A DNA stretch of 37,353 bases. Origin: a virus. Taxonomy: Duplodnaviria; Caudoviricetes. Location: IMG/VR virus record IMGVR_UViG_3300036778_000047, positions 1 through 37,353 of that record. One strand, given 5' to 3'. This document shows, piece after piece, positions 1 through 9,062 of this stretch. Within the stretch, counting starts at the first letter, position 1. Every line of letters starts with the position of its first letter. A program made the translations under genes and the position numbers. The notes beneath the pieces were generated by a model that worked only from the letters and a program-made list of their open reading frames with translations, ran no database searches and had not been told where the DNA came from.

Positions 1-152
1 ATGCGGGCTTGTGAGTGCACCGCCCGGTCGAGCCATTCGCCGACTGTCAGCCCGGCCCGCGTGGCGCAAGTCCTCACGAGATGGCGGCTCGCCACCGGAA
101 AGCCCCTGACCAGGAACTGCGCTTTATCGCCTGTTTCGGCGTCGTCCGACAT
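1..152 (-). CDS. Partial small DNA-binding-like protein (ribbon-helix-helix-like), runs off the left edge
   Basis: Manual translation from ATG 152 gives MSDDAETGDKAQFLVRGFPVASRHLVRTCATRAGLTVGEWLDRAVHSQAR, a strand-helix-helix pattern with GLTVGEWL; GAGGG RBS-like sequence upstream. Not in the ORF track. Confidence 0.55.
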   Translation of the reverse strand, partial: MSDDAETGDKAQFLVRGFPVASRHLVRTCATRAGLTVGEWLDRAVHSQAR

Positions 153-177
153 GATCCGCACCCTCTGTTTGCCCGCG

Positions 178-229
178 TGTTATACGCTTTTCGGGGCAAT
201 GTTATACAAGAGGGGGAAATTGTATAACA
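178..229. promoter_or_regulatory. Operator-like inverted repeat TGTTATACAA-N10-TTGTATAACA plus a third half-site
   Basis: Perfect 10-bp inverted repeat at 200-209 and 220-229, and TGTTATAC at 178-185, in the AT-rich gap upstream of the ORF starting at 152. Confidence 0.65.
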
Positions 230-237
230 GGCGGAAG

Positions 238-444
238 TCACGAGATGATTTTCATGAACGCGGCCCCGGCTGCGAACAGCGCGGCGCCTGCGGTCATGCC
301 GGATACCAGCAGCGCCAACGGGGCGAGGGAGATTTCCTGTCGCTTGCGTTCAGTGTCGGCGCGCTTCTGATCGATGTCGGCGATGATCTGCCGGATTTTG
401 AGCGCGTCGAGATCCGGCGTGTCGTCACTCATAGGGGTCACCAC
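238..444 (-). CDS. Small coiled-coil protein with C-terminal membrane anchor (start may be ATG 432)
   Basis: IRQIIADIDQKRADTE followed by hydrophobic LALLVSGMTAGAALFAAGAAFM; similar to 2055-2264. Confidence 0.7.
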   Translation of the reverse strand: MVTPMSDDTPDLDALKIRQIIADIDQKRADTERKRQEISLAPLALLVSGMTAGAALFAAGAAFMKIIS

Positions 445-545
445 ACTCCGCTAAGCTGGCGGCGCAGCTCACGCGCCTGCAGCCGGTCGCGGTGCCACGA
501 TCGCAGGCGCTGTGGGAGGCGATGGACAAGGCGGAAGATCGGCAT
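438..545 (-). CDS. 35-aa Arg-rich peptide, loosely DUF1127-like
   Basis: Manual translation MPIFRLVHRLPQRLRSWHRDRLQARELRRQLSGVW; preceded by the ACACCAGACGGAGAA leader also found before the ORF at 1290. Confidence 0.4.
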   Translation of the reverse strand: MPIFRLVHRLPQRLRSWHRDRLQARELRRQLSGVW

Positions 546-569
546 GGGGGGTAATTCTCCGTCTGGTGT

Positions 570-923
570 TCAGTCTTGCTGACCGGCCGATTTGCCAGCC
601 GTCTTGAGGATAGACGGCCACAGCGCGAGGAAGATTTGCGCCTCATCGTCGCCGGCCTCGGCGTCGGCTGTCAGCCGCGAGATTTCAGCGTCATTGCGCA
701 GCCGGCGGATGGCCGGAACAACCTCGATCGCCTGGAAGCGGTCTGCCGTCGATTCTGAGGCGGCGGCGTCAGCCGCTTCGCGGCTATCGAAGTAGGCAAA
801 GCTGGTGGCGTTGAACTTGTTCAGCCATGCAACCGCCCAGCTAGCATTCCAGAGGCGCGAGGAAGCCGGAAGGCTGTCGGCTTTGCCGAAGGCGCTGGCT
901 TCGATCATGTGTGTTGCGACCAT
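570..923 (-). CDS. Hypothetical protein
   Basis: 117-aa ORF with GGAG upstream of the ATG; lies in the leftward accessory operon. Confidence 0.6.
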   Translation of the reverse strand: MVATHMIEASAFGKADSLPASSRLWNASWAVAWLNKFNATSFAYFDSREAADAAASESTADRFQAIEVVPAIRRLRNDAEISRLTADAEAGDDEAQIFLALWPSILKTAGKSAGQQD

Positions 924-1001
924 CTTACCCGCTCCGTCCGTTTGGTGTTCTCAAAACTGTTGCCCGATACTTTACTTAGCCTCGGTGCCGGGCTCTCCCC
1001 T

Positions 1002-1019
1002 CGGTCAGCGAACTGACCG
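1002..1019 (-). terminator. Hairpin CGGTCAG-TTCG-CTGACCG (terminator or processing stem)
   Basis: 7-bp perfect stem with a UUCG loop on the minus strand, just after the stop at 1027; no clear U-tract. Confidence 0.35.
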
Positions 1020-1026
1020 GGAACCA

Positions 1027-1290
1027 TCAGGCCGCTTGCGCGGCCTTCCTGGCGTTGTGCTCTACCTGGGCACGAGCTGGCCCCCAAATGCGCTCCAGGT
1101 TGTTCAGAAAATTTAGCTCCAACCTGGTGTAGGAGAGATGATCCTTCAAAGCATTCCGGAATTTATCGTTGGCAATCGCGCATTGGCGGCAAACTGCGGC
1201 CCAGGCTTGCACGGGCGTCTGATTGCTTCCCGAAATCGCCAAACCCTGTAACCGGCGGGCTTCGTTGTAATGGGTGAATGCTTCGTTCAT
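1027..1290 (-). CDS. Hypothetical protein (MNEAFTHYNEARR...)
   Basis: ATG 1290 with GGAG RBS; first gene after the leftward promoter. Confidence 0.6.
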   Translation of the reverse strand: MNEAFTHYNEARRLQGLAISGSNQTPVQAWAAVCRQCAIANDKFRNALKDHLSYTRLELNFLNNLERIWGPARAQVEHNARKAAQAA

Positions 1291-1320
1291 CTCAGTTCTC
1301 CGTCTGGTGTGTGTCTGTCC

Positions 1321-1364
1321 GTTGATTGACAACGTAAGCCAACGCCCTTATGGTGTCAATTAAC
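1321..1364. promoter_or_regulatory. Overlapping divergent sigma70-type promoters inside an 11-bp imperfect inverted repeat
   Basis: Plus strand: TTGACA (1326-1331)-17 nt-TATGGT (1349-1354). Minus strand: TTGACA (1359-1354)-17 nt-TACGTT (1336-1331). Arms GTTGATTGACA / TGTCAATTAAC. Confidence 0.75.
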
Positions 1365-1371
1365 AAAACAC

Positions 1372-2058
1372 ATGGGCACCAAGTTGGCTAAGTTTTATCT
1401 CTCCAACATCCGACCGGCGTGGCCGTTTGAGCGGCAAGAGGCGCTGCTCGACGCCAAGGCGCCGGGCTGGCGCTCGGGGGCGGTTTATCGTGACGCCCTC
1501 TCGGCGCGGAAACGTCAGGGGCACGGGGCGGCTGACCTGAAGCAGCGCGAGACGATGCTGCGGCCTACGCGTCGACCGGCTGGCGAGGACGTCATCGTCC
1601 CGGCGCTGCCGGTGCTGGACTGGTCGGTTAGGGGGCTGCTGGCTGTTCTGACCGCGCTATCCGAGCGCGGATCGACGCTTAAATCCCTCGATTGCGGGAC
1701 CATCGTGCCGCCCAACGACGTCGGGGCTGCCGCGGCGGCTGTGGCAGAATTCGAGCGCGCCTGTCGTCGGATCGGCGACCCCCGGCAGTCGGGCGGGATC
1801 GTATCGGGCGAGCGGCGAGCTGCCCGGGCCAAAGCGGCTTGCGAAGCGCTGAGCCCCTATTGGCGCCTCCCGAGCGCCGACTACCCGACCGCGTCGCTGC
1901 TGAAGAAATACGGCGTGTCCCGGCCCACCGCCATTGCTTACCTTGGGCCGCGCGGCGAGGCGCAGCGGGCGTACCAGCACGCCATATCAACGGCTGAACG
2001 CAACCAGGCCAGGAAGCAGAGGCGTGAGGCCCCGCAGGCAGAGAAGGAACCGGCATGA
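1372..2058 (+). CDS. Serine resolvase/invertase-like protein with degenerate active site and C-terminal HTH
   Basis: Resolvase-like order FY...ERQ..LL...VYRD.LS...R..ML...R...EDVIV..L..L..S...LL.....L..RG..L.SL; YxRVS replaced by YLSNI and DRLxR by PVLDW; HTH-like LLKKYGVSRPTAIAYL. Confidence 0.7.
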   Translation: MGTKLAKFYLSNIRPAWPFERQEALLDAKAPGWRSGAVYRDALSARKRQGHGAADLKQRETMLRPTRRPAGEDVIVPALPVLDWSVRGLLAVLTALSERGSTLKSLDCGTIVPPNDVGAAAAAVAEFERACRRIGDPRQSGGIVSGERRAARAKAACEALSPYWRLPSADYPTASLLKKYGVSRPTAIAYLGPRGEAQRAYQHAISTAERNQARKQRREAPQAEKEPA

Positions 2059-2264
2059 GCGACCTGCCAGCCGATTGGCGCGATCAGATTAACATTCGCG
2101 AGCAGATCGCCCGGATCGACCGCAACCAGGCGGAGATTCAGAAGCTCTTCGCCGAAGCGCGGAAGTTCAACCGTGATCCGTGGTTCCTGATCGCAGGCGC
2201 GATCATCGCGGCCATTGCCACGCGGTTGCCGGAAATCCTCCACGCGTTCGGAGTCGGGCCATGA
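2055..2264 (+). CDS. Small coiled-coil protein with C-terminal membrane anchor
   Basis: IREQIARIDRNQAEIQKL then hydrophobic WFLIAGAIIAAIA; ATGA overlap with the previous gene. Confidence 0.75.
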   Translation: MSDLPADWRDQINIREQIARIDRNQAEIQKLFAEARKFNRDPWFLIAGAIIAAIATRLPEILHAFGVGP

Positions 2265-2482
2265 GCGACGAACCACAAGCCGACCTATCGCTAATTGCCC
2301 GGCAGCAGCTGCAAATCCTGACCGAGATGCGCTCTATGAGCGATGACATGGCGGTTCTGACAGCCATCGTACAGCGCCTGGACGGCACCGTCTCCGGGCT
2401 GGTGAACGAGATCCGCGCGACCCATGCGCAGCAAAGTCGGCTCGACCGGCGCGTGCGCGAGCTTGAGGGAAAGCAGCAGTGA
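2261..2482 (+). CDS. Small coiled-coil protein
   Basis: Starts MSDEPQADLSLI; heptad pattern ending RLDRRVRELE; ATGA overlap. Confidence 0.75.
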   Translation: MSDEPQADLSLIARQQLQILTEMRSMSDDMAVLTAIVQRLDGTVSGLVNEIRATHAQQSRLDRRVRELEGKQQ

Positions 2483-2646
2483 GCGACAAGCAAACGATGC
2501 CGAAGCCCGTCACCTATCAACTGGCCGATGCCATTATGGAGTTAGCCGGCGCGTTGATTGATTTGCAACCACCAGAAACTCAACACGACCTCGCTGACAT
2601 CCAAGTTCGAATGCTCAAACTGAAAGAGGCAATCGACAATGGCTGA
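2479..2646 (+). CDS. Hypothetical 55-aa helical protein
   Basis: Manual translation from GTG (GTGA overlap): MSDKQTMPKPVTYQLADAIMELAGALIDLQPPETQHDLADIQVRMLKLKEAIDNG; fills the operon gap exactly. Confidence 0.65.
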   Translation: MSDKQTMPKPVTYQLADAIMELAGALIDLQPPETQHDLADIQVRMLKLKEAIDNG

Positions 2647-2896
2647 CTCACAAACGACCTGGACGTGCAATTGTCGTCAGCCTGGACTAGGGGGCGATTG
2701 CGACGGCTCATGCACGCATCCGCCCCAACAACCCTGTGAGCGTTGCGGCGGGGATGGTGGGTTTGACGAGGTAGTCGGACACGATCCGCATGGGCCTGTC
2801 AGCCAATGGTTCCGATGCCGCGCATGCGGTGGAACGGGATATTCCGACATCGAATGCGAGCGGCCCAGCATGGAGGAAATCAGCGCCAATGGATAA
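2639..2896 (+). CDS. Cys-rich protein with DnaJ-type zinc-finger motifs
   Basis: CERCGGDG and CRACGGTG (CxxCxGxG) plus extra N-terminal cysteines. Confidence 0.7.
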   Translation: MADSQTTWTCNCRQPGLGGDCDGSCTHPPQQPCERCGGDGGFDEVVGHDPHGPVSQWFRCRACGGTGYSDIECERPSMEEISANG

Positions 2897-3050
2897 CCAA
2901 ACGACCACGGACGACGAACTTCGCGACATCATTGCAGACGCCATCTGCGACGGCGCGCGCGAATGGGACGCGTGGGCAGCACCAGCTACCGCCGGCGAGC
3001 ATGTCGAAAGAGCCTTGGCGCGCATAAAGGAAATCTTCAATGCCAGATAA
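2889..3050 (+). CDS. Hypothetical protein (MDNQTTTDDELRD...)
   Basis: ATG 2889 with GGAGG RBS; overlaps the previous stop. Confidence 0.6.
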   Translation: MDNQTTTDDELRDIIADAICDGAREWDAWAAPATAGEHVERALARIKEIFNAR

Positions 3051-3061
3051 CCAAACGACCA
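2892..3061 (+). repeat. 16-bp direct repeat GATAACCAAACGACCA at consecutive gene starts
   Basis: Exact copies at 2892-2907 and 3046-3061, each preceded by AGGAAATC (2874-2881, 3028-3035). Confidence 0.85.
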
Positions 3062-3357
3062 ATCCCGATATTGCGCTTTTCGGGAAGCGCTGGGCGGCGT
3101 GGGCTGATCAGCCGTCTGGCTCTGTGATCGGCATCGTCCGATTGCTCGACCGCGTAACGCCGCTGTTCGCCGGCCATCCGCCAGCGGTTCAGGGTGCCGT
3201 GCTCGCCGAACTGCTGGCGCTCTGGCTCGCCGGGCACGCTGCGGAAGGCGATCAGGCACAGACCGATCAGCTGCGGCAAGATCTGCTTGCGGCGCACCTC
3301 GCGAGCGTGCGGGAGCTGATCCCGCTGCACGATGCCCGCATCCATGGTGGCGGATGA
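3040..3357 (+). CDS. Hypothetical protein
   Basis: 105-aa ORF with AAGGA RBS; last gene of the rightward accessory operon; converges on the methyltransferase. Confidence 0.65.
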   Translation: MPDNQTTNPDIALFGKRWAAWADQPSGSVIGIVRLLDRVTPLFAGHPPAVQGAVLAELLALWLAGHAAEGDQAQTDQLRQDLLAAHLASVRELIPLHDARIHGGG

Positions 3358-4280
3358 GCGACCAGGGCGCGGCCGATCAGCTCGGCGATCTGCGGGACAA
3401 GCGCGTTTCCGAGGCCCCGCAGTCGGTCCACCCGAGCGGGAACCCCAAAAGCCATTCGACCCACGTCGGGTTCAGGGGGCCAGGAACATGCTCGGATAGC
3501 GGCCGCGAGTTGCCCTGCGATCCCATCGAACACGACTTCCAATCCCGCGCCGTGGGCGTCGGCCACGTCCGCAATACTCGCGTCGGAAGATCGTCGTCGG
3601 ACGGCGGTCGTCGGCGCAGCGGATTCGGCCCCTTGTGATCCGTCGCACATGGCGTCGGCCACATCCTGGCCGATACCGCCTCGATCAGCGTGCCGCCCTC
3701 GCGTCCCTTCTGGGGCGTCACCCGCCCTCCTTTGTCGCCGAGGCTGGCCGTTGGCGTGGGCCACGATCCAGATCCGGTCGCGTCTGTGAGGGGCACCAAC
3801 GGCGGCAGCCGGTATGCAATGCCATTCCGCATCGTACCCGAGCGCGGCCAAGTCTCCGAGAACGTCGCCAAGCCCCCGTCCAAGCAGAGCTGCGACGTTT
3901 TCCACGATGACGAAGCGCGGTCGTAACTCGCCAACAAGACGGGCGTACTCGCGCCATAGTCCGGACCGATCGCCGGCGAGGCCAGCACCAGCCCCGGCGA
4001 GGCTGAGATCCTGGCACGGGAAGCCGCCGCAGATGACGTCAACGGCAATTCCATCTGCTGCGAGGTGCTGGGCTGATAACTGTCTGACATCAGGATAGCA
4101 TTTCACTCCCGGCCAATGCTTCGCGAGCACGCGCTGACAGTAGGGATCGATTTCGCAGAACGCGGCCGGCTGCATCCCGGCCCGTTCGAGGCCGAGGGAA
4201 AAGCCGCCGATGCCAGCGAACAGGTCGAGCACCCGCCACGGCCTCACGCCGTTAACCACCGAGTAACCAATCCCGGCCAT
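3267..4280 (-). CDS. DNA (cytosine-5)-methyltransferase, main polypeptide
   Basis: Motif I DLFAGIGG, motif IV GGFPCQD, motif VI ENV, motif VIII HRRDR, motif X LGNALVPQ. Start codon uncertain. Confidence 0.93.
   Translation of the reverse strand: MAGIGYSVVNGVRPWRVLDLFAGIGGFSLGLERAGMQPAAFCEIDPYCQRVLAKHWPGVKCYPDVRQLSAQHLAADGIAVDVICGGFPCQDLSLAGAGAGLAGDRSGLWREYARLVGELRPRFVIVENVAALLGRGLGDVLGDLAALGYDAEWHCIPAAAVGAPHRRDRIWIVAHANGQPRRQRRAGDAPEGTRGRHADRGGIGQDVADAMCDGSQGAESAAPTTAVRRRSSDASIADVADAHGAGLEVVFDGIAGQLAAAIRACSWPPEPDVGRMAFGVPARVDRLRGLGNALVPQIAELIGRALVAHPPPWMRASCSGISSRTLARCAASRSCRS
3377..4090 (-). CDS. Nested alternative-frame protein, probable second methyltransferase subunit (target recognition and motif IX)
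   Basis: 237-aa ORF fully inside the methyltransferase in another frame; three WPTP units and LNPTWVEWLLGFPLGWTD, which resembles motif IX. Confidence 0.75.
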   Translation of the reverse strand: MSDSYQPSTSQQMELPLTSSAAASRARISASPGLVLASPAIGPDYGASTPVLLASYDRASSSWKTSQLCLDGGLATFSETWPRSGTMRNGIAYRLPPLVPLTDATGSGSWPTPTASLGDKGGRVTPQKGREGGTLIEAVSARMWPTPCATDHKGPNPLRRRPPSDDDLPTRVLRTWPTPTARDWKSCSMGSQGNSRPLSEHVPGPLNPTWVEWLLGFPLGWTDCGASETRLSRRSPS

Positions 4281-4326
4281 GATGCGGGCGTCGGCCTTGT
4301 TGCTGTGCCCGGTCCAATTCGCCGAC

Positions 4327-4363
4327 CAGGAAGCCCCCGTGGGCACGCGCGGGGGCTTTCCTG
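4327..4363. other. GC-rich hairpin between the annealase and methyltransferase genes
   Basis: CAGGAAGCCCCCG ... CGGGGGCTTTCCTG inverted repeat directly after the annealase stop. Confidence 0.45.
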
Positions 4364-4365
4364 CG

Positions 4366-5250
4366 TCACAGCGCCTCGGTTTCCGCTGTATCCTCCACCG
4401 GCGTCGCGGTGCGATCGAGGGCTGCCTTGATCATGGCGTTGAGATCATCTTTTGCCCCGTTCTGCAGCCGGTCGAGCGCGCGCTGGACGTCGTCGCGGGC
4501 GATGATGGCGTCGACCGCCTCGGCGTCGGCGGCTGCGGCCAAATCCGCGCGCAGCTGGTCGAGCCATTCGCGGGCGGTGGGCTTGCGTGGCCCCGGCGCG
4601 GGCTGGTCCATGACGCGGTCGGGGATGGCGTCGTCGATCGCCTGGCCGGCAGACGTCGGCTCAGCGCGGGCGTCGAGCGTCGTGCCGCGGAACGTATCGG
4701 CCGGGATGTCCTGAGCCTCTTCTGCGGTGATCAGGCCGCGCAGCACGTCCGGGAAGGCGTCGCGCAAGGCAAAGCCCCGGGCGCGCATCTGCAGCATGCG
4801 GCGGCTGTATTGCTGCCACGGGCCGGCTTTGCCCCACAGCCCGGCACGCTTGGCGTCGGACACCGAAAACGTCTGCGTCACGGGCGAGGCGCCCCGGCGC
4901 GTGACTTTGCAGTGTGCGGCCAGGTCGTCGCCCTCGCCGGTGGTCCATTCCTCGATGTCCTGGCACAACGCCGACTGGCGGCAGAGGCCGGGCAGGGCGT
5001 CGCCCCACACTGAGGGGCGGCCGTTGACGACGCTGATATTCTGCAACGCTTGCATCGGCGCGAGGCCCAGCTCGCTGCCCATTTGCACGGCGATCACGAT
5101 CGCCTCGGGCTTGTTGGCGTAGTCGCGCGGCACCATGCCCGAGCGGGCGGCGATGTTCGCGAACTGCACCAGCTCGCCGAAGGTCTGCGGGCGGAGCACC
5201 ATGCCCATAGGGGAGGGGCGAGACGCGGCGGGTTTCGTCAGTTCGTTCAT
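4366..5250 (-). CDS. RecT-like single-strand annealing protein
   Basis: GSELGLAPMQALQNISVVNGRP, DAKRAGLWGK.GPW.QY.RRMLQMRAR.FALRDAFPDVLRGL...EE, typical of phage RecT-family annealases. Confidence 0.8.
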   Translation of the reverse strand: MNELTKPAASRPSPMGMVLRPQTFGELVQFANIAARSGMVPRDYANKPEAIVIAVQMGSELGLAPMQALQNISVVNGRPSVWGDALPGLCRQSALCQDIEEWTTGEGDDLAAHCKVTRRGASPVTQTFSVSDAKRAGLWGKAGPWQQYSRRMLQMRARGFALRDAFPDVLRGLITAEEAQDIPADTFRGTTLDARAEPTSAGQAIDDAIPDRVMDQPAPGPRKPTAREWLDQLRADLAAAADAEAVDAIIARDDVQRALDRLQNGAKDDLNAMIKAALDRTATPVEDTAETEAL

Positions 5251-5251
5251 G

Positions 5252-5779
5252 TCAGCGGGACCTCAATTGCAGCGATGGGAATGTGTTTGTCAGTTCGGCG
5301 CCCTCGATCACCTCGCCGTCTTTCAGGGCGGCCAGGATGGCGCTGCGGTCTGGCTCGCGCTTGGTCCGGATGAACCGCTCGGGCAGGGCTGCCTCATCGG
5401 TGACGATGGCGGCGGCGACGCCGGCGCGCATGACGGCGGTCACGTGGGGGAATTCTTCCTTACGCGAGCCGATCGCATCCATGATGGCGTAGGCGGTTTG
5501 CCGCAGGGTTTCGTTGCGGCGCTTGTAGCGGTCGCGCCTTGCGGTCATGTCGCTGATCATGTTGGCGGCGGCGTCGGCCATGCTGGCGGCGTGCTGGGCG
5601 GCAGTGAGCACCCGGCAGAGGATATCGCGGACGTCGCCGTCGACGGGGCCGAGCAGGGCGGCGAGGGCGTGCTCATCGTGGGCTAGATCGGCATCGTCGA
5701 CCAGCAGCCGCGCCCGGGCGGACTGCCAGGCGCTCATCGCCCGCTGGATGTGATAGCCGGAAGGGGGATCGTGGGTCAT
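5252..5779 (-). CDS. Siphovirus Gp157-like protein
   Basis: Coiled coil then VTDEAALPERFIR...PDRSAILAALKDGEVIEGAEL; next to the annealase; ATG 5779 overlaps the previous stop. Confidence 0.8.
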   Translation of the reverse strand: MTHDPPSGYHIQRAMSAWQSARARLLVDDADLAHDEHALAALLGPVDGDVRDILCRVLTAAQHAASMADAAANMISDMTARRDRYKRRNETLRQTAYAIMDAIGSRKEEFPHVTAVMRAGVAAAIVTDEAALPERFIRTKREPDRSAILAALKDGEVIEGAELTNTFPSLQLRSR

Positions 5780-5985
5780 GACATCACCAAAACTCGGTCG
5801 TCGGTTGCGAGCAGGCGGGAGCCGTCGCGGAAGGTCCAGCGGACGGCGCCAAATGCGATGATGGCCGTTTCGCTGGCGGCCTCGGCGAGCATGGCGCGGC
5901 AAACCTGATTGGTTGCCAGCTTGCAAACCGGGATCGGCTGCAGCGTCTGGGCGCAGAAGGCGAGCCAGAAATCGGCCTCGCTCAT
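5776..5985 (-). CDS. Hypothetical protein
   Basis: 69-aa ORF with ATGA overlaps at both ends. Confidence 0.6.
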   Translation of the reverse strand: MSEADFWLAFCAQTLQPIPVCKLATNQVCRAMLAEAASETAIIAFGAVRWTFRDGSRLLATDDRVLVMS

Positions 5986-6158
5986 GGCACCCGCTCGGGC
6001 GCCTCGACCTCGACGTCGCGCAAGGCGATGCGCAGCAGGGCGTCACGGACTGCCCGCAGCTTCCCCTGGCCGGGGCCAGTAGCAGGTAGTTCGGCGATGC
6101 CATCGGACAGCGCCTCGATGATCCAGGCCATCTGATTGGGGCCAATCCAGCCGCTCAT
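5982..6158 (-). CDS. Hypothetical 58-aa protein
   Basis: Manual translation MSGWIGPNQMAWIIEALSDGIAELPATGPGQGKLRAVRDALLRIALRDVEVEAPERVP; ATGA overlaps at both ends and AAGGAG RBS. Confidence 0.65.
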   Translation of the reverse strand: MSGWIGPNQMAWIIEALSDGIAELPATGPGQGKLRAVRDALLRIALRDVEVEAPERVP

Positions 6159-6481
6159 GCGTAGTACTCCTTCACTTCGTCGGCGATGGCGGCGACTGCT
6201 TGCGACTGGTTCTCATTGAACCATTGCTTGAGCGTTTCTAGTTCGGCAGAAGTGAGCGGATCGACCGGGACCAGGGCGTCGATTTCTGCACCCTCGAAGG
6301 TCACGCGGAAGTCATCGTCATCCCGGTCGTAATCGGACACCGAGAACGAGACGACAATTTCACATATATCAATCTCGCCATCCGGCGAGGCGCGCTCGAT
6401 CGTGGTGTAGATCCAGGGCGCGTGGAAAAAATTTCTGTCGTGTGTGCTCTTATTGGTCACCTGTACAGGAGCGACGCGCAT
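6155..6481 (-). CDS. Hypothetical acidic protein, first gene of the leftward early arm (start uncertain)
   Basis: The frame is open to 6721, but the upstream part overlaps operators and the promoter; the C-terminal ~108 aa look globular. Confidence 0.55.
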   Translation of the reverse strand: MRVAPVQVTNKSTHDRNFFHAPWIYTTIERASPDGEIDICEIVVSFSVSDYDRDDDDFRVTFEGAEIDALVPVDPLTSAELETLKQWFNENQSQAVAAIADEVKEYYA

Positions 6482-6693
6482 CACCTTGATATAGCCGGAT
6501 GAACGTGTAACCGGGTCGTCTGTTGTATCGACTGTAACAGTCCCGGCGGTGACTTCCTGGCAATGAGTCTCGCCCGACCCTATTGCAATCGAGTTGCGGG
6601 TCGGGACAGGCTTACAGCTTGGGAGCGCAAAGCCGATGAGGCACGGATCGAGATCGGATGTCACGGACGGAACCTCGCATGTCGCCTGCCTAA

Positions 6694-6818
6694 TGTCGGC
6701 TGTTCCGACGTCAGGAGTCAACCGCGGAATGAATAGCGTCGCAAGTTTCTTGTCGGGATGCCCGACACAAAATCGTGATGTAGAATCGAATCAGGCTGAA
6801 GTGTTGGGAGCGCCGACA
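6694..6818. promoter_or_regulatory. OL/PL-like region: three 17-bp operators and a leftward -35
   Basis: TGTCGG-N5-CCGACR-type sites at 6694-6710, 6751-6767 (perfect) and 6802-6818; TTGACT on the minus strand at 6721-6716. Confidence 0.8.
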
Positions 6819-6833
6819 GAAAACGTCGTGCGG

Positions 6834-7205
6834 TTACGCCGCCTGGTCGTCATCCCCAAGGTGACGCCCCAGCGTTGTCAGGATGTCGAGTGCGAGGCTG
6901 CGCCGGCCGTCCGACATCCGGCGCCAGAGCCGGTTCCAGGCAAGTTCGTCCGGATCATCGATGAAGTAACCCGGCTTTGGGGCGACCTCCCCATCGCATA
7001 GGTAGTCGCTGGAAACGCCGTAAAAGGCTGCGATCTTAAACAGGTTCTCCCGGCCGGGCATATCGCGGCCGCCCTCGATCATCGACAGCGTCGACCGACC
7101 GATGCCCACTGCGCGCGCAACCTCATCGACCGTCAGGTTCCGATTGAGACGGAGCGCCCGGACGCGTGCGCCAAGGTTCAACAGGTCTCTCCCGCTCATG
7201 TCCAT
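6834..7205 (-). CDS. XRE-family phage repressor (CI-like; start may be ATG 7199)
   Basis: HTH_3 pattern LTVDEVARAVGIGRSTLSMIEGGRDMP; divergent from a Cro-like gene and flanked by operators. Confidence 0.9.
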   Translation of the reverse strand: MDMSGRDLLNLGARVRALRLNRNLTVDEVARAVGIGRSTLSMIEGGRDMPGRENLFKIAAFYGVSSDYLCDGEVAPKPGYFIDDPDELAWNRLWRRMSDGRRSLALDILTTLGRHLGDDDQAA

Positions 7206-7321
7206 TTATAATCCCGATTCGCTAACCCCTGGCGGAAAATCCGACAAGGCCTAAAAAAGGCAACGTCCGGTGGTAAAAATCCGGTGTTGACAACCCGGTC
7301 GGCTAGCCCGACGCTGCAGAC
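7206..7321. promoter_or_regulatory. OR/PR/PRM-like region
   Basis: Operators TGGCGG-AAAAT-CCGACA (7230-7246) and GGTCGG-CTAGC-CCGACG (7297-7313); TTGACA at 7287-7292 before cro; minus-strand TATAAA next to the repressor start. Confidence 0.8.
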
Positions 7322-7543
7322 ATGGATGTGCATGAACTCATCCGCCGGGGAGGCGGCCCGACCAAGGTCGGCGTGCGGCTTGGCGTCGCGCATAACACAG
7401 TGTCGGACTGGTTGCGCACCGGATACATACCCGGCGCGCGCCTGGTGCAAATCTCACGCGAACTGGGCGTTCCGATCGAGGTGCTGGCGCCGCTAGTGCG
7501 GCCGGTCGTCAAGCCGGCCCGCACGCCAGCCCGGGCGGCTTAA
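7322..7543 (+). CDS. Cro-like HTH regulator
   Basis: GGPTKVGVRLGVAHNTVSDW...IP; small, basic, divergent from the repressor. Confidence 0.85.
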   Translation: MDVHELIRRGGGPTKVGVRLGVAHNTVSDWLRTGYIPGARLVQISRELGVPIEVLAPLVRPVVKPARTPARAA

Positions 7544-7544
7544 A

Positions 7545-8018
7545 GTGTCGGGCGGCGCGCGGCATGAAAAGCGCTATCCGTGGCCGGACTCTGCCCTGCA
7601 GCTGCTGCGCGATTGGTGGAGCCAGGGTGTCCCGACCGGCGAGATAGGCGCGCGGCTGGAATTGACCAAGAATGCGGTGGTGGGCAAGGCGCATCGTCTC
7701 GGCCTCGATCCGCGGCCCTCGCCCATCCGGCCGCGCGACCCGACCCGGCCGCCGCAAATACGGGTGCACCGCGAGCGGGTAATTTCGACGCTGGCGGTGC
7801 CCAGTTCCGTGCAATCTGCAGTCGCCGAGGTCATTACTCCGCCGGCACCACCGCCGCGGCCCCGAACCGTCTACACCTGCTGTTGGCCGATCGGGCATCC
7901 GGGGCATCCGGGTTTCCGCTTTTGCGAGGCAGCGGTCGAGGGGCGCGTCGCGTACTGTGAGAAGCACCACCGCCGCGCCTATGCCAAGCGCAGCGTCGAT
8001 GCCGAGGTGGTCGAATGA
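7545..8018 (+). CDS. gcrA: GcrA-family cell-cycle regulator homolog
   Basis: W.....L...W..G....EIGARL..TKNAVVGKAHRLGL N-domain and C.WPIG.P....F.FC........YCEKH...AY C-domain. Confidence 0.9.
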   Translation: MSGGARHEKRYPWPDSALQLLRDWWSQGVPTGEIGARLELTKNAVVGKAHRLGLDPRPSPIRPRDPTRPPQIRVHRERVISTLAVPSSVQSAVAEVITPPAPPPRPRTVYTCCWPIGHPGHPGFRFCEAAVEGRVAYCEKHHRRAYAKRSVDAEVVE

Positions 8019-8209
8019 CCTTTTTGCTGACCTATCGCGTGTCGCCCGGGTATCGCGTCGCCGTTCCGCTTCGCCGGTTCGCCACGTTGGCGGCGGGCGA
8101 GCTGATCATCGACCACGCCGTCAATGAGGCGCGCGCAGCAGGCGGCGAGGATCTGGCGCTGCGGCTGGAAGCCCCGGACGGCGGCGTCACGCTGTATCGG
8201 TGGTTCTGA
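8015..8209 (+). CDS. Hypothetical protein
   Basis: 64-aa ORF coupled by ATGA and TGATG overlaps; GAGG RBS. Confidence 0.6.
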   Translation: MTFLLTYRVSPGYRVAVPLRRFATLAAGELIIDHAVNEARAAGGEDLALRLEAPDGGVTLYRWF

Positions 8210-8637
8210 TGGGCGTGGCTGCCAAGCGCGCGCGACCGTTTCGCTTGGCGCCGCCGGTCGTGCCAGAGCACCCGCTGCAGAAGCAGATCGCCGACGTGCT
8301 GCGGATCGAGCTGGCCCCGGCCGGCAAGGTCTCGCCCGATGGCGTCGTGTGGTGGAGCGTCGACCACGCGAACTACGCCGGCGAGGTGCCTGGCATCCGC
8401 GTCAACCGGGGCATCATCGCCGGCATCCCGGACCTGTTTCTGCTGTGGCTGGGGGCGGCGTTCATGATCGAGATCAAGACGGGTGTGGGCGAGTTGTCGC
8501 AGCCGCAGCGGGCGGTCTGTGCCGCGGTGCTGGCGGCTGGCGGGCATGTGGCTGTCGCGCGCGATGCGGATGAAGCGCTGGCCTGCCTCGATCGGTGGGG
8601 CGTGCCGCGGGCCGGGCGCATCAGGAGGGGAAAATGA
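8209..8637 (+). CDS. VRR-NUC / PD-(D/E)xK nuclease (Holliday junction resolvase-like)
   Basis: EH.LQ, GIPDL, IEIKT..G.LS..Q motifs. Confidence 0.85.
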   Translation: MGVAAKRARPFRLAPPVVPEHPLQKQIADVLRIELAPAGKVSPDGVVWWSVDHANYAGEVPGIRVNRGIIAGIPDLFLLWLGAAFMIEIKTGVGELSQPQRAVCAAVLAAGGHVAVARDADEALACLDRWGVPRAGRIRRGK

Positions 8638-9062
8638 GAAGCGAACCGAAACTGGCAACCTGGTGGACGCCGCTTGGATGGATGAGAGCGCCCGAGCCCG
8701 AGGCGTTTCGCGGCTACGATGCCTCACCGGATGATGGCGAGTACGGGTTTCTGCGCGAACGCGGCTACACGGGCACGGCGTTCGGTGATGCCTATCCCGG
8801 GAACGATTATTGGGAACTGCAGATATTCACGCATCCCGAGCATCTGCTGGTGCGCTTCTGGGACCTTCGCGCGCTGCCGCAGTGTCGCTTTTTCGTCGCT
8901 GTGGCCGATCAGGACGCTTTCATGGTCGACAAGCTGCTGGTGCTGCTGCGCGACCTCGGTCTCGATCCGAGCGCCAGCGGGCGGCAGACGCGTCTGGTGA
9001 AGGCGCTGACCGAATCAATGCGGCCGGATGACGACCGCAGCGGCTCGGAAACGCTGCAATGA
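8634..9062 (+). CDS. Hypothetical protein, paralog A
   Basis: ATG 8634 with AGGAGG RBS; WWTPLGWMRAPEPE...PEHLLV.FW...CRFFV...FMVDKL..LLRDL.LD shared with 9283-9681. Confidence 0.75.
   Translation: MRSEPKLATWWTPLGWMRAPEPEAFRGYDASPDDGEYGFLRERGYTGTAFGDAYPGNDYWELQIFTHPEHLLVRFWDLRALPQCRFFVAVADQDAFMVDKLLVLLRDLGLDPSASGRQTRLVKALTESMRPDDDRSGSETLQ

Follow-up and report, generated by a model that had tools for sequence, protein, structure and literature searches.

Integrons carry a recombinase gene and a promoter at the head of a variable array of promoterless cassettes, and they use a tyrosine integrase and folded attC sites between the genes. A comparable module lies at positions 238-3357 of a 37,353-nucleotide stretch of viral DNA (IMG/VR record IMGVR_UViG_3300036778_000047; this stretch, which is the entire record, is called the window below). 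As in an integron, a recombinase-fold gene and a promoter lead a variable row of genes, here small ones, many of which start with a short leader ending in Thr-Thr. The module is real, recurrent, cassette-like and apparently undescribed: a full-text literature search, outside which most subscription papers lie, gave no account of the module, of a phage family of catalytically dead resolvases or of the Thr-Thr leader. The head gene encodes a serine-recombinase fold and not a tyrosine integrase. No attC hairpins were found between the genes, which overlap; long inverted repeats were absent from the junctions and an Rfam search over positions 1-9000 was empty.

The PeSL cassettes of T4-type hyperplastic regions, as described in the accessible part of PMC2839356, are variable small genes shuffled at a conserved junction, and the module resembles them as a phage accessory region with variable small genes and a conserved junction. 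PeSL cassettes are intergenic promoter-terminator units, whereas the joint of the module lies ~10-30 bases inside the first codons, and a single promoter pair serves the whole module, which, unlike PeSL, is headed by a recombinase-fold gene. A promoter and stem-loop at each junction were not found: 4.5 kb held one promoter-like and two terminator-like matches, none at right-arm junctions. The Din-family invertases (Hin, Gin, Cin, Pin and Min; accessible parts of PMC3241671 and PMC3985619) are small serine recombinases, as are the head proteins of two other arrays, L213 and L220, and the geometry of the leader may match the inner left half-site of this family. Unlike Din systems, the module has no 26-bp palindromic site and no inverted pair bounding a segment, and its joints are direct repeats; the head protein of the window also differs from the invertases in lacking their catalytic motifs.

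A constant core, variable cargo and an in-frame leader

The features of the module, with protein lengths in amino acids (aa), are listed here.

238..432, minus strand: last gene of the left arm, 64 aa, coiled-coil with a hydrophobic tail, no motif; a homolog lies near the same module in G206
438..545, minus strand: doubtful open reading frame (ORF) of the left arm, 35 aa, short, with long spacing to the ribosome-binding site (RBS) and no credible family match
555..569, minus strand: left leader copy 1, 15-bp exact repeat including GGAG
570..923, minus strand: left-arm cargo, 117 aa, no family match
937..949, minus strand: left leader variant; near-identical leaders occur in L003, L004 and L005
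1027..1290, minus strand: first cargo of the left arm, 87 aa, no family
1296..1310, minus strand: left leader copy 2, 15-bp exact repeat
1326..1359, no strand: 34-bp imperfect inverted repeat with two overlapping divergent sigma70-like promoters, AC at the exact centre (1342-1343)
1372..2058, plus strand: head gene, resolvase fold with C-terminal helix-turn-helix (HTH), catalytic motifs replaced
2055..2264, plus strand: right-arm gene 1, 69 aa, untagged
2261..2482, plus strand: right-arm gene 2, 73 aa, untagged
2479..2646, plus strand: right-arm gene 3, 55 aa, degenerate leader KQTM
2639..2896, plus strand: right-arm gene 4, 85 aa, leader DSQTT, Cys-rich cargo
2889..3050, plus strand: right-arm gene 5, 53 aa, leader DNQTT with the 16-bp repeat 2892-2907
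3040..3357, plus strand: right-arm gene 6, 105 aa, leader DNQTT with the 16-bp repeat 3046-3061

Thirteen related loci were fetched. The main count drops L005 and L028, whose contigs stop at the gene or immediately behind it, and L027, a truncated member of the head family with 0/2 tagged downstream ORFs that was retained in the blind count. A row of overlapping small ORFs stood behind the head gene in the window and in all 10 remaining relatives, each time with different cargo, and neighbouring array genes overlapped by 4, 8, 11, 14 or 17 bases in 55/61 pairs. The cargo, which includes RNR-beta, an RNase, a radical SAM protein and a methylase, was unrelated between the 11 arrays except for one weak cross-locus pair. 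The module, carried by several soil-type phages, was present in podoviral (including P22-like), myoviral and HK97-like genomes together with RecT or Sak4, the latter taking the place of RecT in one relative.

After curation, 46/72 array ORFs carried Thr-Thr in residues 3-14; in this set nine starts had been picked by eye with the motif in view, and one start lies inside a fused ORF. A motif-blind tiling, counted by hand with spurious ORFs included, gave 40/80. The tagged share by locus ranged from 14/18 down to 1/5 (Thr-Ala variants) and 0/1. Controls gave 5/65 and 0/65 elsewhere in four of the array phages, 4/45 and 1/51 in other viral loci, and 0/25 and 9/221 in host DNA. A promoter-pattern scan had yielded 119 loci, none carrying the dead head family described below, and 14 of them (GC>=55%) were used as controls. 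At array starts the ACNAC pattern fell in frame 0 in 46 cases and 4 times in each other frame, and base conservation extended no further than the second Thr codon.

The leader belongs to the array position and not to the cargo family. Only 1/20 homologs of the cargo at 3040 had Thr-Thr near the start, and an RNase family carried the tag in L163, where it sits in the right arm, and lacked it in L213, where it sits in the left. In two cargo families that recur (L161/L213 and L004/L213) the residues before Thr-Thr differed and the sequence after it was the same. RNR-beta was considered as proof of simple leader addition and judged weak, two other phage RNR-beta proteins having 5-9 variable leading residues. 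In L161 the leader is fused directly onto the HTH part of a resolvase gene; the same HTH is fused near that point, without a leader, in two other database proteins, and because of these two the fusion spot may be a breakage hot spot. Separately, in P0204 and P0205 the HTH of the intact resolvases is fused to unrelated N-terminal domains, one of which is PF10544.

A preliminary description of the locus had read it as two divergent arrays sharing one motif, possibly a cassette array, and its observations were confirmed as a whole. The 15-bp exact repeat at 555-569 and 1296-1310 (minus strand), its variant at 937-949, the 16-bp exact repeat at 2892-2907 and 3046-3061 and CAAACG at 2491 and 2651 are all present, and the protein starts and ends quoted there are correct, the gene at 2479 having a GTG start. 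The motif had been placed at seven gene starts as ACCARACG-like; five of the seven sites fit ACCARACG, whereas only the shorter CARACG is matched at 2491 and 2651. The motif is missing from the genes at 2055, 2261 and 432. A check on enrichment, as proposed there, gave six ACCARACG copies in the window against 2.03 ± 1.29 in shuffles and 0/100 shuffles reaching 6, a significance that is overstated because the pattern was picked from the data itself. Five of the six copies lie on the sense strand of the module.

The idea of a single motif for both arms was not supported by strand counts over 14 loci, which gave two related motifs, both with patterns set post hoc. The right motif had 53 sense and 4 antisense copies on the right arm (8.1 expected) and no enrichment on the left arm (5 vs 6.9 expected), and the left motif, a looser A/C-rich leader with RBS, had 34 sense and 10 antisense copies (8.9 expected). 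Left copies are non-coding leaders ending in a GGA(G) RBS; right copies are coding, within codons 3-7. The A/C-rich runs before GGA(G) are CCAAACGGA-like in the four closest loci and AACCCC-like in the others. AAAC is common to both motifs and continues with GA or CC in the left one; the two may be one kind of site with different cores. The first interpretation was thus partly supported: since cargo varies completely in related loci while the junction motif persists, the cassette idea gains support for the right arm, and as one motif over both arms it is not supported. The RNA or translation signal also suggested there may still apply.

Chance combined with generic N-terminal codon bias is a very improbable account of these patterns. 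CARACG is common (53 copies in the window) and the motifs were defined post hoc, but 46/72 stands against 0-9% in six control sets and was replicated in five further arrays; for the right arm the control counts refute chance.

The head protein and intact resolvases at other arrays

Small serine recombinases are recognised by two catalytic motifs, YxRxS with the nucleophile Ser, and DRLxR. The head protein of the window (228 aa) has a resolvase fold with an HTH by Pfam, structure and profile comparison (model pLDDT 94; nine PDB matches at E<=0.001, all serine recombinases; profile match 98.5%). The resolvase-like character first assigned to this gene therefore stands for the fold, and the catalytic motifs are replaced. 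In the place of YxRxS the protein reads YLSNI (vs YxRVS in nine ordinary resolvases), and in the place of the DRLxR arginines it reads PVLDW, the family consensus being AVLAW. Among 129 family members the nucleophile column held I53 L19 G13, and Ser was kept by 1/127, which reads YIRAST. From these replacements the window protein is predicted to bind DNA without recombinase activity; because the catalytic motifs are missing it is probably a repressor. Non-canonical catalysis through a conserved Ser11 may nevertheless occur.

The head protein has 15 other close homologs and defines an unnamed family of catalytically dead resolvases with 134 clusters at E<=1e-30. At 0.001 the family grows to 570 clusters, in a tail that probably includes ordinary resolvases. 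A single-protein scan of viral contigs gave no relative, the isolated-phage collection no match, and of the searches with subfamily alignments A6 found no locus and A5 known contigs only. In a clade of L013/L028 and P0016 the Arg is kept with Gly at the nucleophile position (YxRxG), which may be an intermediate in the loss of catalysis. The head gene of L163 (3211-3702) is interrupted, either by a break in the frame or by deletions within it, and its array still has 4/5 leaders.

Tn3 resolvases repress divergent promoters that overlap their site. The inverted repeat at 1326-1359 is likely the operator of the head protein. One promoter pair between the arms had been proposed; two overlapping promoter-like sites are indeed present there, the rightward match alone not exceeding chance (1 found vs 1.0 expected) and drawing its support from conservation in relatives. 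AC or GT was central in the promoter repeat of 9/11 loci (5/6 of even length at the exact centre, 4/5 of odd length in the central triplet), a count in which L161 gave no repeat and two loci were left out.

Leader-only searches returned 6 and 22 matches, of which 3/6 and 3/22 lay in tagged arrays and the rest in unrelated genes; one array found in this way, L001, was a partial source of the search pattern. A long consensus of the junction gave 0/169 loci. L213 and L220 showed the same double-promoter layout with an intact resolvase at the head. Both proteins carry YARVS and DRLAR, with PF00239 above cut-off (E 2e-46 and 4e-46), and tagged downstream ORFs numbered 7/7 in L213 and 7/11 in L220, the seed match and one likely chance case included. 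The two loci share one 682-bp block (promoter and resolvase) at 81% and nothing else in ~10 kb. This query did not find the intact type in 401 + 401 genomes, and the isolated-phage collection gave only distant resolvases. A constant core, variable cargo and a position-bound in-frame leader are thus joined to a recombinase-fold head of two lineages.

Improbably, the motifs could be sense-oriented binding sites of the head protein that silence both arms in the manner of stoperators, with no crossover. The retention of helix E and the HTH after catalysis was lost fits such a role, as does the recurrence of AAC(G) in the promoter spacer and in the left and right leaders of the closest loci. A fixed reading frame is not needed for binding, however; the sites, which differ between the arms, are short and degenerate, and the same right motif goes with HTH domains as dissimilar as those of the dead family and the L213 type.

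Readings of the joint

How phages acquire tiny accessory genes and start their expression is an open question. Our best explanation, a tentative one of somewhat less than even weight, is a cassette array in which recombination points lie inside the first codons and serve as joints for the gain, loss and swapping of genes. The double promoter and the resolvase-fold gene would head a row of unrelated small genes. A cassette would span one joint to the next, and each would therefore supply the following gene with its RBS, start codon and leader, the fixed reading frame keeping one cassette exchangeable for another. A half-site of a small serine recombinase (AAAC-C/G), followed by an AC crossover dinucleotide, is the likely origin of the joint, which would be used by the intact resolvases that head arrays in the two other phages, L213 and L220. 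In the window phage the head protein, predicted to be catalytically dead, would repress both promoters, and exchange would need either a helper recombinase or microhomology acted on by an annealase. Annealases are able to join sequences that are short or diverged (accessible part of PMC2327257), and such joining may offer an exchange route in phages with a dead head gene. A narrower version seems unlikely to us: integron-like gene capture by a small serine recombinase, in which AC crossover in the first codons fuses the RBS, start and leader to captured DNA, even gene fragments, the dead lineage having taken over arrays as repressor.

Codon choice at both Thr codons departed from gene-body usage (p = 4e-4 and 3e-6), and the codon before Thr-Thr ended in A or T in 53 cases vs 24.6 expected; codons -2, +2 and +3 showed no such bias. 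A pure peptide signal does not predict this bias, which therefore counts for a DNA site. Published invertase sites, in the accessible parts of PMC3241671 (Table 3) and PMC3985619, show AAA-CC or AAA-CG followed by a two-base core; within the A run one A may be replaced by T, and the base next to the core is C or G. Set in this register the leader reads A(A/T/G)A-C(G/C) with core AC, and its variable third positions coincide with variable positions of the sites in the accessible tables (PMC3241671 Table 3, PMC3985619 Table 1). The match to the inner half of DNA-invertase sites is a fit, not proof.

Several observations weigh against the cassette reading. The AAAC[CG] inner left half was present in 32/68 leaders, or 40/68 with A>T, with four of its bases fixed by Thr-Thr selection; the outer TTC was found in 0/68 and the right half in 2/68, and no module held a full palindromic site. 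Codon -3 was also enriched for A/T endings (46 vs 23.8), partly from overlapping stop codons, and consensus mismatches fell at third codon positions in 20.5/24 and 40.5/62 cases (3/8 expected), as peptide selection predicts. The count of AC at promoter-repeat centres was post hoc, on related loci. L156, L158 and L206, three of the six leader-found arrays, had no resolvase-fold gene directly upstream in records that are 67, 17 and 24% complete. On a 48-protein tree with long branches the dead family stood apart from the intact array-head resolvases, and the intact type grouped with ordinary resolvases, the genomic context being known for only 2/9 intact-type rows. The dead family is old and diverse, yet near-identical fresh leaders occur with it (L004); canonical chemistry by the family's own enzyme therefore cannot account for them. 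No close strain pair showed a single cassette gain or loss, and no exchange event was seen directly.

The main rival, which we also regard as unlikely, is a protein-level N-terminal tag: polar residues followed by Thr-Thr would be read by a protease, chaperone or modifier of the host or the phage and give the proteins one shared fate, such as timed degradation or processing. The strict frame lock (46/4/4) and the dominance of third-position variation, mostly synonymous and seen within single phages too, agree with it, as do the replacement of the initiator region of otherwise ordinary proteins and the phage-specific flavours QNSTT, NPETT and KTT. Synonymous codons are nevertheless biased at three positions, and the cargo comprises enzymes and fragments with no common role. 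Micro-ORFs that consist of the leader alone (9-22 aa) precede coupled cargo without a tag at L001 6876, L004 5724 and 7854, and L161 6527 and 7130, and one leader copy is off frame (L161 6795). The array proteins resemble the internal proteins of T-even phages, diverse small proteins with a common capsid targeting sequence (accessible part of PMC3012670), in having only a short N-terminal peptide in common. Unlike T-even capsid targeting, the module goes with at least four head types and metabolic-enzyme cargo and has no link to a head protease; since P22-like, other podoviral, myoviral and HK97-like heads all carry it, capsid targeting or loading by the leader is unlikely.

Less probable still, both motifs may be A/C-rich, unstructured translation elements, for initiation on the left and for re-initiation at stop/start overlaps on the right, spread by junction copying. 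This agrees with the overlap of 55/61 neighbour pairs and with weaker folding at tagged starts (-6.1 kcal/mol vs -9.8 at untagged starts and -11.9 in core genes). The left motif ends in an RBS, like the start-associated sequences of Cluster K mycobacteriophages, a conserved 13-mer in 11-19 copies (accessible part of PMC3203893), and like these it is asymmetric and sense-oriented and precedes non-structural genes. The window holds three copies of this sense-oriented repeat with its RBS core, and a single conserved 13-mer in many copies was not found, the consensus differing among phages; the right motif is coding, whereas the accessible part of PMC3203893 gives the start-associated sequence no coding counterpart. 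Low structure calls for neither a single frame nor a Thr-Thr that ends sharply on its 3' side; Thr-Thr occurs at 0-9% in other genes of these phages and hosts, and the link to resolvase-fold genes of two lineages is left unexplained.

With a sharp, in-frame joint that is linked to a recombinase-fold gene in two separate lineages, the mechanism can be tested directly using a 200-aa enzyme and 30-bp substrates. If the cassette-joint reading is true, phages would have an undescribed way to collect accessory genes; if the peptide reading is true, unrelated phage proteins carry a new shared N-terminal signal.

Phage, host and neighbouring genes

The phage of the window is P22-like, and its genes include those for portal, capsid, ejection, RecT-like and methylase proteins. 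Its host is probably in or near the Acetobacteraceae, judging from one named bin and from family versus class genome matches. The dead head family was found in 4 new genomes among 401 of the family of the Acetobacteraceae bin, and in no new genome among 401 at class level or among 301 relatives. Contigs of sequencing run X1, which may be the source sample, span the module stretch with few differences. In contigs of two sequencing runs, an assembly product that drops rare variants, no joint was found inside the module.

No integrase was found among the 54 window ORFs scanned. A possible helper, outside the module, is the following gene.

4366..5250, minus strand: RecT-like annealase

A Mu Gam-like gene at 5252-6145 adjoins it. 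Two minus-strand ORFs, 3267-4271 and 3377-4090, are DNA methyltransferase-like, overlap in different frames and converge on the end of the right arm. Beyond the left arm, the open-ended minus-strand ORF 3-152 has by eye the look of a ribbon-helix-helix regulator, without a significant family match. The array of L035 (8650-9950) is followed closely by an integrase gene and so lies near a prophage end, and G206 is a prophage. The untagged proteins of 238-432, 2055-2264 and 2261-2482 are small coiled-coil proteins that all start with MSD, two of them with hydrophobic tails, and positions 410-434 and 2334-2358 form an 80% inverted repeat.

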